This document shows positions 2,143 through 29,569 of a stretch of DNA of 63,646 bases, one piece after another; within the stretch, counting starts at the first letter, position 1, and the number at the start of each line of letters is the position of its first letter. The translations under genes and the position numbers were made by a program. The DNA is from Patescibacteria group bacterium (GTDB lineage Bacteria; Patescibacteriota; Patescibacteriia; UM-FILTER-42-10): NCBI GenBank assembly GCA_041664365.1, contig JBAYKW010000008.1, positions 1 to 63,646 on the forward strand. The letters are read 5' to 3'. A model generated the notes under the pieces. The model made no database searches, was not told the origin of the DNA, and saw only the letters and a program-made list of their open reading frames with translations.

Positions 2143-3993
2143 ATGCCAGAAAAAAAAAGCAAAAAGAAAAAAGAGACTGCTGAAAAGAAAACTAACAAGC
2201 AAAAAAGAAAGAGTCATCTCCCGGCGATATTTACAGTTTTGATATGTATCGTTGTTTTTTTTGTTGCTGCCGTCGCAGTTTATTCGAATCTTTATGAACA
2301 GAAGATATACCCCGGTGTTTCGGTAGGACAAAAAAAATTACAGGGTTTATCTTACATGGAAGGAATAGATCAAATTGAAAATGCAATAATTGGTATTGAA
2401 GATGAGGGTTTGGTGTTTATTTATCAAGATACGGAATTGGTCTTAGACTCTAAAATGACAAGCATTGAAAGTGGTGTTGAATATGAAATATTCTATTTTG
2501 ATGGTAATACGATGATTGATGAAGCATATCTGACGGGAAGAAGAGGATCATATTTGAATAAGCTCAGGGATCAATTAGCAGCGCTCATGTTCGGAAGAGA
2601 TATCCCTGTCGAATACTTTTTAGATTTGAGTAAAGTTGAGATTGTTTTGAAAGAAAAATTTTCACAATTTGAATCGCCCCATATTGATGCATCTTTGGCA
2701 GTGAATGATGATTTATCCTTCTCAATTACGAAGGAGCAGTCGGGAAAGGTATTTGATTATGATTTAATAATGAATGAGGTAAAAAATAAATTTGTATCAC
2801 TTCAGCCGGGATCAATAAACATGGAATTAATATTTGATCCGATTCAGATAACACAAAAACAAGCCACTGCATTTTTATCTGATGCGGAAAAAATAGCAAA
2901 GTATGCACCGTTTAAAATAAATTACGATGACAAAGCCTGGGAAATTTCGGAAGAAGAATTCCGCGAATGGTTAAACTTTCTACCCGATGCTCAGTCAGGA
3001 ATCAAAATCGGGTTAGACGGAGAAACAGTTGGAAAATATCTTGATACTTTGCGCGAAGTAGTGGATATCCCGGTATCGGATGGTAAATTCAGAATGGAGG
3101 CGGACAGAGTTGTGGAATTCCAGGGCAGTAGACCGGGGGTAATTATTGATTCAGAAAAAACGATACAGAAAATTACCGAAGATATTATTAACAATAGCGG
3201 TAAAGAAACAAGCCTGGTTGTTAAAACTGAAGAACCGGAAATTTCTGTCGGCAATGTAAATGATCTTGGGATCAAAGAACTGATTGGTACGGGTAAGTCT
3301 GATTTTACCGGCAGCCCCACGAATAGAAGAGCGAATATCAAGCTGGGCGCGGAAAAGTTGAACGGGATATTAATCAAACCCGGAGAGGAATTTTCACTGC
3401 TGAAAGCCCTGGGCAGTTTTGAAGCATCCGAGGGCTGGTTGCCGGAATTGGTGATTAAAGGGAATAAAACTGTCCCTGAGCTTGGTGGTGGCGCATGCCA
3501 GTTCGGAACTACTATGTTTAGGACCGCACTGAATACCGGCCTGCCGATTACTAACCGACAAAATCACTCTTATTCGGTTTCCTACTATTTCCCCGTAGGA
3601 ACGGATGCTACAATTTATGATCCGGCGCCTGATTTTAAATTTATCAATGACACAAAACATTATATTTTAATTCAAACCAAAATTGAAGAAAACATAATGA
3701 CTTTTGAAATGTGGGGTACAAAAGACGGCAGGGTAGCGGAACAGACAACTCCCGTGCTTTCAAATTATGTAAGTCCCCCCGCCACAAAAATAGTGGAGAC
3801 AACTGATCTTGCTCCGGGCGTGACTAAGTGCACGGAGAAGGCACATACCGGCGTAACCGCATCATTTGACTATAAGGTAACTTATGAGGAAGGTGAAGTT
3901 AAAGAACAGAATTTTACCAGCAAATATAAGCCTTGGCAGGAGGTGTGTTTGAAAGGGGTGGAAAAGTTAAGTGAAGAACCTAAGCCAGAATAG
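2143..3993 (+). CDS. VanW-family protein with N-terminal TM and putative PG-binding repeats
   Basis: NRRANI, GEEFS, GGGACQFGTT-FR, R-NHSY-VSYY, G-DATI motifs. Confidence 0.9.
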   Translation: MPEKKSKKKKETAEKKTNKQKRKSHLPAIFTVLICIVVFFVAAVAVYSNLYEQKIYPGVSVGQKKLQGLSYMEGIDQIENAIIGIEDEGLVFIYQDTELVLDSKMTSIESGVEYEIFYFDGNTMIDEAYLTGRRGSYLNKLRDQLAALMFGRDIPVEYFLDLSKVEIVLKEKFSQFESPHIDASLAVNDDLSFSITKEQSGKVFDYDLIMNEVKNKFVSLQPGSINMELIFDPIQITQKQATAFLSDAEKIAKYAPFKINYDDKAWEISEEEFREWLNFLPDAQSGIKIGLDGETVGKYLDTLREVVDIPVSDGKFRMEADRVVEFQGSRPGVIIDSEKTIQKITEDIINNSGKETSLVVKTEEPEISVGNVNDLGIKELIGTGKSDFTGSPTNRRANIKLGAEKLNGILIKPGEEFSLLKALGSFEASEGWLPELVIKGNKTVPELGGGACQFGTTMFRTALNTGLPITNRQNHSYSVSYYFPVGTDATIYDPAPDFKFINDTKHYILIQTKIEENIMTFEMWGTKDGRVAEQTTPVLSNYVSPPATKIVETTDLAPGVTKCTEKAHTGVTASFDYKVTYEEGEVKEQNFTSKYKPWQEVCLKGVEKLSEEPKPE

Positions 3994-3995
3994 CG

Positions 3996-5033
3996 ATGGA
4001 TCCAAATGAATATCTGAAAGGGAAGTTAGAGACTTGCGCTCAAACCGAGTTAAGACCTGTTGATCGCGAGTTTTTTAAATTGTACGGCGTACAGGATTTT
4101 ATTTATCGGATGCTCATGCTTAAGAAATTCAGAAAATGGAAAACAAGTGACGAATATGCCGGTGAAATAAAAAAATCGATAACTTATGCAGTTGCAAAAA
4201 ATGAACCATTCGAACTTTCCTGGTTTTTTGGTGGTTATAAGCTTTGGCGTTTTCCGTCCGCTCCGCTAGTTGATTGGGCGGAACTATTTACAATTTCATA
4301 TCTGGTAGAATATGCATCGATGATTGCAAAAGTGTATGAACCGGGAATTAAAATTGTTTTCTGGGCAGCTCATCCTTCAGTTATGAAACTCCAGAGTAAT
4401 ATTCCGGAAAATGATTGTCAGGAGTATCGCGATTCATTTGATAATCTGCTTAGTATAATTCATCCTTATTTACCGATAAATTTGAAAGTTGAATTAAAGT
4501 CGTTTGAATCTCTGTATCCGAATAATGGAGAATATCAGGCAGAACTTAATCAAATGATTATGGATGTTGAAAATGAATATAAAAACGGATGGACAGCTGA
4601 AAGAAAGGATAAAAAAAATGCATCATCTATTTTAAACATCCAATGGCAGGGTGCTGAGAACTGGGAGTCGCTTTCAAGTGATGAAAAAGAAGAAAAAATA
4701 CGGCGGGGTCCCATAGTACATGACGGTTATTGCCGGCTTTCGAAGATCAGTCAGGCAGTACGCGGTTTAGGAAAAGTTGATTTAACTGCTACACCCATTC
4801 CGGGCGGATCGATCGCTGTTGGAACTTCTGCGTCATCAGTAACCAAGTTCTGGACCGGATTTGGCGTGTTAGAAAAGAGGGGCGATGAATATGTAGAGAG
4901 GATTCTCTCGCCTCAGCAGTTAGAATCGGTGAAAGAGATGCCACATGAGAAGATAAAAAGCAATATTGTTCCATTAAAGAATTTTGAAGAAATATGGATA
5001 TTCAACAATGAAATAAATTTTTCATTGAAATGA
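3996..5033 (+). CDS. Hypothetical protein, distant Dit1/PvcA (isocyanide synthase)-like
   Basis: NEPFEL..FGGYK, DWAELF..SYL, KVYEPGIKI line up by eye with PvcA GEPIEF..AFPAK, DMAERL..SFL, LFYAPGAKI. Confidence 0.5.
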   Translation: MDPNEYLKGKLETCAQTELRPVDREFFKLYGVQDFIYRMLMLKKFRKWKTSDEYAGEIKKSITYAVAKNEPFELSWFFGGYKLWRFPSAPLVDWAELFTISYLVEYASMIAKVYEPGIKIVFWAAHPSVMKLQSNIPENDCQEYRDSFDNLLSIIHPYLPINLKVELKSFESLYPNNGEYQAELNQMIMDVENEYKNGWTAERKDKKNASSILNIQWQGAENWESLSSDEKEEKIRRGPIVHDGYCRLSKISQAVRGLGKVDLTATPIPGGSIAVGTSASSVTKFWTGFGVLEKRGDEYVERILSPQQLESVKEMPHEKIKSNIVPLKNFEEIWIFNNEINFSLK

Positions 5034-5506
5034 TAAAAACAGATAAAAATTTCAAAATTTTAGGATTCTTGATGCCCTGGTTTTTATATTTTGTAATATA
5101 TGGTACTTTATGTTTCACCGGTCGAAGTTCTTTGTATAAAAGCAATGTTTGTGTTGAAGAACCGATGATCAATTACTATTGGGCGGTCATTCTTGCTACA
5201 ATTATGGGTCTCTTTTTTTCTTTCCCAAAATCTAAATTATTCACATGGTTCTTAAGTGCTACAAAATATTTTAGAAATGCCAAAAGCAAAAATAAATTTT
5301 ACTATCAGTTAAAGTCATACATCAATACATTTTTTTGGTCTTTTATCATTATTCTAATATTTTTTTCGCCGTCTTATCTGTATGTTACGAGTAAACGCGG
5401 TCCATATTCGTATTTTTTAATAGTTTCTGTATTTTCAATAATTTATGCAACTGCAGACGCGTTTGTGCCTTTATTTAGAAAGTTTCTTCTTAGAAAGAAA
5501 AAGTAA
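5030..5506 (+). CDS. Hypothetical membrane protein
   Basis: About four hydrophobic segments; ATGA overlap with the upstream gene. Confidence 0.7.
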   Translation: MIKTDKNFKILGFLMPWFLYFVIYGTLCFTGRSSLYKSNVCVEEPMINYYWAVILATIMGLFFSFPKSKLFTWFLSATKYFRNAKSKNKFYYQLKSYINTFFWSFIIILIFFSPSYLYVTSKRGPYSYFLIVSVFSIIYATADAFVPLFRKFLLRKKK

Positions 5507-5559
5507 TTTTATAGCATTAATTGTCTCTCTGAACAAATCAATTTTTAAGGATAAAAAGC

Positions 5560-5742
5560 AAAAACCCCGCAAATTTGTGGGGTTTTGATAATATCCATTG
5601 AACTGCGCTCAAGAGAATTCATCAGAGGAAAGTTCTAGGTAAACCCAGAAAAAACCTAAAGATGAGTTCCCATGCTTGTCGTGAGCGCAGATTAAAAGAT
5701 ACTATCTATAAAGGTGAAGATTTGTCACCTTTTTTAAGGCAA
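5560..5742 (-). ncRNA. Candidate structured non-coding RNA of unknown family
   Basis: Minus-strand promoter TTGACA-17-TATCCT (5749-5777), long imperfect rod hairpin at about 5588-5706, terminator at 5561-5586, no ORF of meaningful length. Confidence 0.45.
5561..5586. terminator. Bidirectional intrinsic terminator
   Basis: AAAACCCCGC-aaattt-GTGGGGTTTT with A/T flanks. Confidence 0.75.
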
Positions 5743-5829
5743 CAGAGTAGGATATCATATTAGATATAACTTGTCAAGGGGGGTAGGAAGTGATAAGATT
5801 TTGGTGTAACTTTACTCAAAAAGACACTA

Positions 5830-6852
5830 ATGGAAGCGGAAAAAATAATTACAGCCAAAGATAAACCGGAGGATAAAACACTGGATCTGACATTGAGACC
5901 GCGCGCGCTCAGTGAGTTTGTCGGGCAGGAAAAAATCAAAAAAAACCTCCAAATATTTATGCAGGCAGCTCAGCAAAGAAAAGAGGCGATTGAGCATACT
6001 TTGGTTTATGGTCCTCCGGGAATCGGTAAAACAACCCTGGCGCATATTATTGCAAATGAAATGGGGGTAAACATCCGTGTTACTTCGGGACCGGCGATAG
6101 AACGTGCGGGAGATCTGGGTGCGATTCTAACCAACTTGAATGACGGAGATATTTTATTTATTGATGAGATCCACCGACTACCAAGGATTGTGGAAGAAAC
6201 ATTATATCCGGCGATGGAAGATTATTCTTTGGATATAGTTGTCGGCAAAGGACCGGCGGCGCGGACGCTTCGCCTGGATCTGCCTCAGTTTACGATTATC
6301 GGTACGACAACCAGAGCCAGTCTGTTATCTGCTCCGCTCCGTGACCGTTTCGGCATTACATACCGGTTAGATGAATATACCGACAAACATATGGAAGAAA
6401 TATTGAGAAGGTCGGCAAAAATATTAGGGATTGATGTTCTGCCCGGCGCTCTGGAAGAAATCGCGAAGCGATCAAGACGCATTCCGCGCATTGCCAACCG
6501 TATTCTGAAGAGAGTAAGAGATTTTGCGCAGGTTGAATCACGAGAAAAAATTGATAAAGAAATAGCGCAGGACGCGCTCAGCCGTCTTGAGATTGATCCT
6601 TTAGGCTTAGATGTCGTGGATCGCAGGATACTTGAGACAATTATCAAAAAGTTTAACGGCGGGCCGGTGGGGATAAACACTATTGCCGCCGCAACCAGTG
6701 AAGAAAAAGAAACGATCGAAGAAATCTACGAACCGTTTCTGCTTCAGATGGGATTTATCGCCCGAACGGCCAGAGGCAGAGTAATAACGGAGCAGGCTTA
6801 TAAACATCTGGGCATAGATTTACCGGGTGATTATCAAAATAAATTGATTTGA
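5830..6852 (+). CDS. ruvB: Holliday junction branch migration helicase RuvB
   Basis: [41 protein letters not shown]. Confidence 0.98.
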
Positions 6853-24411: not shown

Positions 24412-24488
24412 TGGTGGACCCGAGCGGATTCGAACCGCTGACCTCCTCGTTGCAAACGAGGCATTCTAACCAGCTGAACTACGGGCCC
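24412..24488 (-). tRNA. tRNA-Ala(TGC)
   Basis: Cloverleaf; G3:U70 pair; loop TTTGCAA; CCA. Confidence 0.96.
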
Positions 24489-24499
24489 CCGATTGTGCT

Positions 24500-24742
24500 T
24501 TATATTGCTGTCATCGAAAAGATAGATTTAAAGATATTACCCAAGATACCGGACATAAGCAGAAAACTCACTATTATGCATAATATCCCGAGTAGCTTGT
24601 AGAAGAGATTCGTGCCTCCATCTAAGCCCAAATGTGCTTCCGCCCATTCAATCCTCCCAAAAAACCTTAAAAACCACACTGATTTTATAACCATTAATGA
24701 CCCTACCGCAATGCCTATAATCCCGATAAAGAATTTTCCCAT
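24500..24742 (-). CDS. Small two-TM hypothetical protein
   Basis: FGRIEWAE..LG..GG..FYKLLG; lies between two tRNAs. Confidence 0.7.
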   Translation of the reverse strand: MGKFFIGIIGIAVGSLMVIKSVWFLRFFGRIEWAEAHLGLDGGTNLFYKLLGILCIIVSFLLMSGILGNIFKSIFSMTAI

Positions 24743-24755
24743 AGTGTTTTGTTAA

Positions 24756-24832
24756 TGGTGGGTTCGAGAGGATTCGAACCTCTGACCTCTTCGGTGTAAA
24801 CGAAGCGCTCTAACCAGCTGAGCTACGAACCC
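24756..24832 (-). tRNA. tRNA-Val(TAC)
   Basis: Cloverleaf; loop TTTACAC; CCA. Confidence 0.96.
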
Positions 24833-24840
24833 GTGAATGG

Positions 24841-24927
24841 TGGTGCTCGGAGCGGGAGTTGAACCCGCACGCACGATAAGTGCCTAGGCCCTCAACCTAG
24901 TGTGTATACCAATTCCACCACCCGAGC
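24841..24927 (-). tRNA. tRNA-Leu(GAG)
   Basis: Long variable arm; loop TTGAGGG; CCA. Confidence 0.95.
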
Positions 24928-28580: not shown

Positions 28581-28656
28581 TGGTGGGAGCAGAGGGATTT
28601 GAACCCCCGACCGTTTGCTTAAGAGGCAACTGCTCTACCAACTGAGCTATGCTCCC
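28581..28656 (-). tRNA. tRNA-Lys(CTT)
   Basis: Cloverleaf; loop CTCTTAA; CCA. Confidence 0.96.
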
Positions 28657-29492: not shown

Positions 29493-29569
29493 TGGTGCCC
29501 TCGGTAGGATTTGAACCTACAACCTCTTGGTCCGAAGCCAAGCACTCTATCCAATTGAGCTACGGGGGC
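29493..29569 (-). tRNA. tRNA-Arg(TCG)
   Basis: Cloverleaf; loop CTTCGGA; CCA. Confidence 0.95.

Follow-up and report, generated by a model that had tools for sequence, protein, structure and literature searches.

An uncatalogued family of rod-shaped small RNAs in one class of Patescibacteria

The window analyzed here is a whole 63,646-nucleotide (nt) stretch of DNA, contig JBAYKW010000008.1 of assembly GCA_041664365.1, from a Patescibacteria group bacterium. On its minus strand, between about positions 5742 and 5553, lies what is almost certainly a stand-alone gene encoding a structured small RNA (sRNA), ~190 nt long in this genome and ~150-230 nt across its relatives. With the same near certainty, the sRNA belongs to a large uncatalogued family, which nearly every genome of the window's class carries, usually in one copy. 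An earlier reading of the DNA letters by themselves (hereafter the sequence-only reading) had flagged the locus as an orphan structured RNA and possibly a new sRNA, and this possibility is borne out: the element stands alone as a structured sRNA, is framed by a promoter and a terminator of its own, and has no match in Rfam.

The absence from the catalogue extends well below the usual thresholds. In Rfam 15, the sRNA has no match at the gathering threshold; when positions 5450-5880 are searched with lax filters at E ≤ 10, all matches fall far below gathering, with the best at 27.1 bits vs 55. Three of the weak matches, rnk_pseudo, rimP and MicC, were rejected as identities, their three alignments shown covering the terminator hairpin only. 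Two loci from a sister class (see below) likewise yield nothing relevant in Rfam. In the literature, no description was found of the RNA family or of any 6S RNA in bacteria of the Candidate Phyla Radiation (CPR), and known families were compared through Rfam.

Structure, strand and signals of the RNA gene

The gene consists of a promoter, a short leader, a long conserved hairpin (the rod) and a terminator. Its features, all on the minus strand, are as follows, with base-paired strands written in the direction of transcription.

5749..5777 (-): sigma-70-type promoter, with the -35 element TTGACA at 5777-5772, a 17-nt spacer and an extended -10 element, TGaTATCCT, at 5757-5749
5707..5742 (-): 5' leader, which contains a small hairpin, AAAGGUGA/UCACCUUU (5732-5710); lineage-specific, outside the family core
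5587..5706 (-): conserved rod of 120 nt, five helices forming one long hairpin with 43 consensus base pairs (bp), from the covariance-model match and RNAalifold
5588..5705 (-): P1, which closes the rod with three segments of 4 bp each (5705-5692 with 5601-5588); 12 of 12 pairs compensatory, the sequence varying while pairing is kept
5603..5690 (-): P2, CUGCGCUCA with UGAGCGCAG (5690-5682 with 5611-5603), 9 bp, of which seven covary
5672..5681 (-): asymmetric loop of 10 nt, CGACAAGCAU, facing one unpaired U (5612); the family hallmark, invariant in the window's class
5613..5671 (-): P3, a 12-bp helix (5671-5660 with 5624-5613) that opens with G-C and then two G.U wobbles, kept as G.U in 100/107 and 77/107 sequences
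5626..5657 (-): P4 (AGG/CCU), followed by an internal loop of ~4 x 4 nt; AGG and CC nearly invariant
5634..5649 (-): P5 with its apical loop, CUGGG-UUUA-CCUAG in this copy, with conserved GG/CU and a G.U pair in 101/107
5553..5586 (-): intrinsic terminator made of the hairpin AAAACCCCAC-AAAUUU-GCGGGGUUUU and a U-run downstream of it, from sequence and fold

The rod is supported by folding and, above all, by covariation. The predicted 191-nt transcript has a minimum free energy (MFE) of -68.8 kcal/mol (z = -7.55), and none of 200 shuffled sequences is as stable. RNAalifold, applied to a MAFFT alignment of 21 copies from which a truncated second copy in genome G055 was left out, returns the 43-pair rod with compensatory changes in 33 of the 43 pairs. 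Among 107 distinct rows, 90.7% of the cells are paired as compared to 62.6% in shuffles, and the covariation score is 0.733 vs 0.216 in shuffles, none of 500 of which reaches it, and at most 0.173 when the partners are slid. The 107-row alignment was fitted to the model and thus favours the structure, and the independent MAFFT alignment of 21 copies agrees; three antisense matches, dropped from the consensus, from the neighbour counts and from a further alignment (A3), are included among the 107 rows. The sequence-only reading had staked its candidate on covarying homologues, and these turn out to be abundant, with compensatory changes on both sides in 38 of the 43 pairs.

The same reading had nested four helices into the rod, three of which are found in the MFE fold and are backed by covariation: GAUAGUAUC/GAUAUUAUC (5706-5698 with 5595-5587), CUGCGCUCA/UGAGCGCAG, which is P2, and GAACUCAUC/GAUGAAUUC, which lies inside the two strands of P3. 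The fourth, TAGGT/ACCTA, was mis-paired. In the 21-sequence alignment, 62% of its cells are paired vs a shuffle mean of 66.7%, and its covariation is 0.065 vs 0.089; in its place, the family pairs AGG with CCU (5657-5655 with 5628-5626) and CUGGG with CCUAG (5648-5644 with 5639-5635).

Conservation is concentrated around the asymmetric loop. Its sequence is identical in all 21 seed sequences, and each of its bases is at least 97% conserved in 105 sequences; the last two pairs of P2, which abut it, are invariant (C-G in 107/107 rows, A-U in 106/107). The apical loop, by contrast, is variable, UUUA in the window copy and a UUCG tetraloop in many relatives. An invariant AUG at the edge of the asymmetric loop opens frames of differing length that lack a Shine-Dalgarno sequence, and a small peptide was rejected as the product. 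The sequence-only reading had seen no meaningful open reading frame (ORF) here, and indeed the sRNA holds no ORF of 30 or more codons on its own strand.

Since the opposite strand folds almost as well (-66.7 kcal/mol), folding alone does not assign the strand. It is fixed by two conserved G.U pairs, present in 100/107 and 101/107 rows, which, read from the opposite strand, would become A.C mismatches. The covariance model derived from the 21-copy alignment (R1) matches positions 5581-5712 with 123.8 bits on the minus strand vs 30.5 bits on the plus strand. The near-equal stability of the two strands (-68.8 and -66.7 kcal/mol) could suggest that the element acts as DNA, as a palindrome, a repeat or a mobile element resembling a miniature inverted-repeat transposable element (MITE), but this is barely conceivable: the element is single-copy in its genome and sits in a conserved chromosomal context, the G.U pairs exist on one strand only, the model scores the two strands unequally, the strand with the G.U pairs is also the one that bears promoters and terminators, and neither multiple dispersed copies nor target-site duplications were seen.

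The signals that flank the rod point to an independent transcription unit. The promoter, as the sequence-only reading had it, is TTGACA-17-TATCCT at 5777-5749; it is near-consensus, with 10 of 12 matches, the -10 hexamer TATCCT at 5754-5749 and an upstream TG at 5757-5756, and is the best of 10 promoter-like sites between 4800 and 6500, where shuffles give 4.5 ± 2.3 sites. Transcription is predicted to start near 5742. Among the homologues, 55 of 100 have a promoter with at least 10/12 matches within 110 nt upstream, vs 12 of 500 shuffles, and in the first 60 of the 100 nearly all of these combine a perfect TTGACA with a 17-nt spacer. The intrinsic terminator is likewise present as proposed, at 5586-5553; its stem carries one A.C mismatch, which is why a simple terminator scan missed it, and it can also serve the plus-strand gene that ends at 5506. 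A terminator-like site follows within 80 nt in 52 of 103 homologues vs 38 of 515 shuffles, and a U-run stands directly 3' of the rod in 38 of the 103 copies. That many homologues have predicted promoters and terminators of their own argues for a stand-alone RNA gene.

The leader is lineage-specific. The small 5' hairpin that the sequence-only reading reported does exist as AAAGGUGA/UCACCUUU, but it is common only to the two closest genomes of the same genus (G001 and G003), being absent from G002 and from the rest of the family, and the predicted fold favours a competing leader hairpin over it. In the homologues, leader length varies from about 5 to 70 nt.

Distribution of the family

A DNA search of 61 related genomes recovers matches in 20, with the distant ones covering only the core around CUGCGCUCACGACAAGCAUGG. 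Model R1 reaches much further: it finds the RNA in 137 of 151 genomes sampled from the window's class and, among the 136 of high quality, in 127, with two copies in three genomes. A second model, R2, was built from 104 sequences. The window copy reaches 123.8 bits with R1 and 108.7 bits with R2; it is part of the seed alignment and matches by construction, and independent members score 57-118 bits with R1. The copy displays the traits that define the family, namely the five-helix rod with CA-CGACAAGCAU-GG in its 5' strand and UUCUUG in its 3' strand.

A scan for the exact motif, using one genome per species, gives at least 120 stretches that carry it. Among the matches listed, the carriers are titled Candidatus Falkowbacteria, Uhrbacteria, Magasanikbacteria, Komeilibacteria, Buchananbacteria, Kerfeldbacteria and 'Patescibacteria group'; the six named candidate phyla make up GTDB class ABY1, and the record titles suggest this class of Patescibacteria. 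R1 was run on 100 loci, comprising 36 from the genome searches and 64 of the 80 motif-scan loci (six with non-CPR titles and the last ten being excluded), and 99 of them match. A locus labelled Saccharibacteria (L072), searched with R1, gives no match. Many public records of metagenome-assembled genomes titled 'uncultured Gammaproteobacteria bacterium' carry the full-length CPR-specific RNA (e.g., L066, L068, L071, L074), which suggests that these titles are placeholder or wrong taxonomic labels.

Outside the window's class, R2 finds the family in only 3 of 144 genomes of the phylum sample, all three in one small class, and a diverged form is present in 10 of 16 genomes of this small sister class. 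Two of the sister-class copies keep the gene neighbourhood, with vanW beside the copy in L062, where the convergent arrangement is also kept, and ruvB beside the copy in L061; the kept synteny marks them as true homologues. The rod, P2 (here CUGUAGNC) and P4 persist in the sister class. Because the loop sequence is missing there while the rod is present, the rod is older than the loop; the 10-nt loop is either an innovation of the window's class or was lost in the sister class.

Some genomes carry tandem full-length copies 100-250 nt apart (L053, L066, L068, L103, L112, L125; G049, G067, G109), and tandem duplicates are found in 6 of 98 loci. In G055, the second copy is truncated (L013:114-232) and keeps the loop motif in a small hairpin.

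Candidate functions

We tentatively favour a stable, strongly expressed RNA that would serve as a scaffold with a protein-docking site and would be bound by its partner instead of base-pairing to targets. The long covarying rod would provide a rigid scaffold. The loop CGACAAGCAU, together with the invariant pairs that flank it (C-G and A-U below, G-C, G.U and G.U above), would form a sequence-specific dock for a conserved protein, and a second conserved module, AGG/CCU-loop-GG/CU, one 12-bp helix away, would lie on roughly the same face. The docking site is suggested by the invariance of the loop and its closing pairs while the helix sequences drift, and the scaffold by the investment in a covarying rod, which resembles 6S, signal recognition particle (SRP) and Y RNAs more than seed sRNAs. 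Forty-three covarying pairs are a great deal of structure for an sRNA of the seed type. The best genomic complement to a conserved 14-nt segment is the gene's own antisense, which also counts for binding over pairing.

Several observations pull the other way. The invariant loop and flanks also fit an RNA-RNA contact or a conformational switch: CAAG within the loop (5672-5681) is complementary, as can be read directly from the sequence, to the invariant CUUG of the 3' strand (5610-5613), which makes an alternative pairing register possible, and covariation cannot test this register because all eight bases are invariant. The sister-class copies have short variable bulges of 3-8 nt in place of the 10-nt loop; the loop is accordingly dispensable for the RNA in its ancestral form, and the function may reside in the rod. 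By a simple scan, 45 of 100 homologues have no strong promoter, and copies located 3' of clpP on the same strand suggest that some may be processed from longer transcripts; expression and transcript ends are in any case predictions, the sequencing runs listed for the locus being of DNA type, with no RNA run among them. Finally, no RNA-binding protein is found among the conserved neighbours of the family loci.

The invariant loop, or a part of it, could instead be the seed of a trans-acting base-pairing sRNA directed at conserved mRNA targets; since the complement of the loop contains AUG, translation starts would be candidate targets. Class-wide sRNAs with an invariant single-stranded motif, such as the actinobacterial 6C and RsaE/RoxS, are typically seed regulators, and the new RNA shares with them conservation at the class level, a short invariant unpaired motif and its own promoter and terminator. 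Tandem duplicates, as often seen for regulatory sRNAs, and the recurrence of the stress genes clpP and hsp20 nearby (28/99 loci each) are in keeping with such a role. We nevertheless consider it unlikely, if worth pursuing. The 6C and RsaE/RoxS RNAs are short and present their motif in hairpin loops, whereas here it bulges from a rod of 43 bp and is closed by invariant pairs, an unusual setting for a seed, and no target complement was found. Outside the gene, the genome contains two exact 10-mer complements of the loop (~2.6 are expected by chance, by estimate), one of them inside a coding region, and no complement of the conserved 14-mer with one mismatch or fewer. The 5' region of vanW shows no conserved complementarity, 30 of 38 loci having no match of 7 nt or longer. 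The loop sequence is, moreover, missing from the sister class.

The main rival to a protein-docking scaffold is a functional analogue of 6S RNA, a rod that would imitate promoter DNA and tie up the sigma-70 RNA polymerase holoenzyme; this too we rate as unlikely, while taking it seriously. The 10-nt loop on the 5' strand would then be the template strand for a product RNA (pRNA) that starts with AUGCUUG, and the P4-loop-P5 module would be placed where the -35 contact falls. The distributions of the two RNAs are complementary: the 6S model RF00013 matches 0 of 121 genomes in the window's class (E ≤ 0.01) vs 17 of 96 genomes of other classes, four of these above threshold, all 17 matches coming from a 101-genome phylum sample and lying outside the window's class; the new RNA is distributed in reverse (137/151 in the class vs 3/144 outside). 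This reversal may, however, reflect a single evolutionary event, and 6S RNA goes undetected in most CPR genomes anyway. With RNase P RNA and transfer-messenger RNA (tmRNA) both found in the genome, 6S is the one common housekeeping RNA unaccounted for. The rod is of comparable total length to 6S and has a strong promoter, and its loop lies on the strand of template polarity and ends in U, a usual start template in Escherichia coli 6S RNA.

The details of structure argue against equivalence. Like 6S RNA (SsrS), the new RNA is rod-shaped, near-universal and single-copy, is similar in overall length and is interrupted in mid-rod, its transcription being predicted. The sequence-only reading had likened its size and rod-with-bubbles shape to 6S, a resemblance that does not survive closer comparison: the 6S interruption is a large, central two-sided bubble of ~13-16 nt per strand, set between a closing and an internal stem, whereas that of the new RNA is a one-sided loop of 10 nt vs 1 nt, invariant in sequence. 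RF00013 gives no score at E ≤ 10 on the window locus or the two sister-class loci and finds nothing elsewhere in the same genome. In 6S RNA, synthesis of the pRNA makes the freed 3' strand refold into a new hairpin; when the would-be template was masked in RNAalifold, which serves as a computational proxy, no conserved alternative helix of the pRNA type emerged for the freed 3' strand. Members from the sister class have bulges of only 3-8 nt. The canonical 6S RNAs of CPR bacteria, moreover, look different and have a different synteny, with no VanW nearby and mostly beside tRNA genes. These canonical RNAs (loci L184-L191, in other classes) measure ~145-195 nt.

Another structured RNA of similar outline is the bacterial SRP RNA (4.5S; RF00169, RF01854), a single hairpin of ~115-120 nt with conserved asymmetric internal loops that form its protein docking site. 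That the new RNA is a ~120-nt, near-universal, single-copy rod in genomes without an Rfam-detected SRP RNA might recommend it as a divergent 4.5S RNA; this identity can be virtually discounted, and is refuted as far as the tools reach. The sequence-only reading had set SRP aside for want of the GGAA motif, correctly so: neither RF00169 nor RF01854 scores on the locus, the domain IV signature (a GNRA tetraloop next to symmetric and asymmetric loops) is missing, as is an AGCA motif, the apical loop varies in sequence, and the conserved loop lies ~30 nt from the apex instead of beside it.

The protein partners, Ffh and FtsY, were not found either. PF02978 (SRP_SPB), PF00448 (SRP54 GTPase) and TIGR00959 (ffh) have no hit in the window's genome, although its assembly is 96.4% complete and absence is not proof. 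In a tblastn search of the whole genome, E. coli Ffh has a best E of 3.7, and six-frame translation of the sequence, which contains no masked bases, reveals no DTAGR-type GTPase; SecY, taken as a positive control, is found. In many bacteria, ftsY and ffh lie between smc and rpsP; on contig 14 (C14:2792-6064), rpsP follows smc after 96 nt. The absence is strikingly consistent across the phylum samples: SRP_SPB is found in 0 of 121 genomes, SRP RNA in 0 of 101, and the SRP54 GTPase domain above the cut-off in 0 of 21 and in 0 of 4. SRP loss in CPR bacteria is probably already known, as a passage of one published account has the two SRP subunits absent in many of them (PMC8080830).

Three further identities were rejected. 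The new RNA is similar to Y RNA (YrlA), the partner of Ro/Rsr, in being a stem-dominated sRNA, sometimes in tandem, with a conserved bulged helix as the (here putative) protein site; it differs in having a plain UUCG/UUUA apical hairpin and no tRNA-like domain. No TROVE (Ro) protein (PF05731) was found in the genome, and no Y RNA, YrlA or tRNA-like Rfam model scores on the locus. RNase P RNA and tmRNA are each encoded elsewhere in the genome; tmRNA was located with the Rfam model at C2:113026-113414 (113 bits), ARAGORN having returned a false negative.

Near-universal presence in one copy, about 43 covarying bp and an unchanging loop are typical of core cellular RNAs as opposed to accessory regulators, and the loop is unchanged across roughly 90 family-level lineages. 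It is possible, though on the whole doubtful, that this is the fourth housekeeping RNA of the class beside RNase P RNA and tmRNA, either as the RNA subunit of a novel ribonucleoprotein or as a structurally new replacement of 6S RNA that binds RNA polymerase via its one-sided invariant loop. If so, it would rank among the core components that define the lineage, in organisms that are also without the SRP system, and would offer a hypothesis on the control of polymerase in a lineage without detectable 6S RNA. A large share of bacterial diversity belongs to the CPR, whose non-coding RNAs are scarcely known; here, a well-defined new family, for which a seed alignment, a structure and two functioning models exist, is ready for Rfam, and its loop is a concrete handle for fishing out a partner.

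Genomic neighbourhood

The genes around the RNA in the window are the following.

2143..3993 (+): VanW-like gene (PG_binding_4, VanW and a weak G5 domain), the conserved convergent neighbour of the family
3996..5033 and 5030..5506 (+): two overlapping ORFs without a Pfam match between vanW and the RNA, together ~1.6 kb
5830..6852 (+): ruvB, divergent from the RNA promoter; local context

The sequence-only reading had described the RNA as divergent from ruvB. This is true of the window locus but is a local arrangement: of 99 homologous loci, only 17 have ruvB nearby. The recurrent neighbour is instead a VanW-like homologue, found near the RNA in 84 of the 99 loci, in 68 of them convergent (tail-to-tail) and often 30-170 nt away; clpP (28/99), hsp20 (28/99) and a DHH phosphoesterase gene (19/99) also recur.

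The constancy of this association, which is kept in sister-class locus L062, raises the idea that the RNA acts in cis on the VanW-like gene, as a GadY-like convergent antisense or terminator module that sets the 3' end or stability of vanW mRNA or insulates against read-through. Convergent antisense sRNAs of the GadY type are also placed tail-to-tail with a protein gene. We regard a cis role as quite improbable. In the window, the two ORFs separate the RNA from vanW by ~1.6 kb, yet all conserved features of the RNA are intact, so that, unlike GadY-type sRNAs, it is independent of adjacency and has its own structure under selection. In 15 of the 99 loci there is no vanW nearby; clpP and hsp20 are conserved nearby as well, and slow genome rearrangement may explain the synteny. 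A role confined to vanW explains neither the invariant loop nor covariation in a rod of 43 pairs.

The intervening pair of ORFs (3996-5506) gives the impression of having been inserted recently into a vanW-RNA junction that is otherwise conserved: the 345-aa ORF (3996-5033) is present in one other locus only, from a genome of the same genus, and the 158-aa ORF (5030-5506) is seen in the window only. Elsewhere in the window, six tRNA genes lie on the minus strand, at 106-177, 24415-24927, 28584-28656 and 29496-29569, three of them clustered at 24.4-24.9 kb; these tRNAs are the window's only Rfam matches at the gathering threshold.

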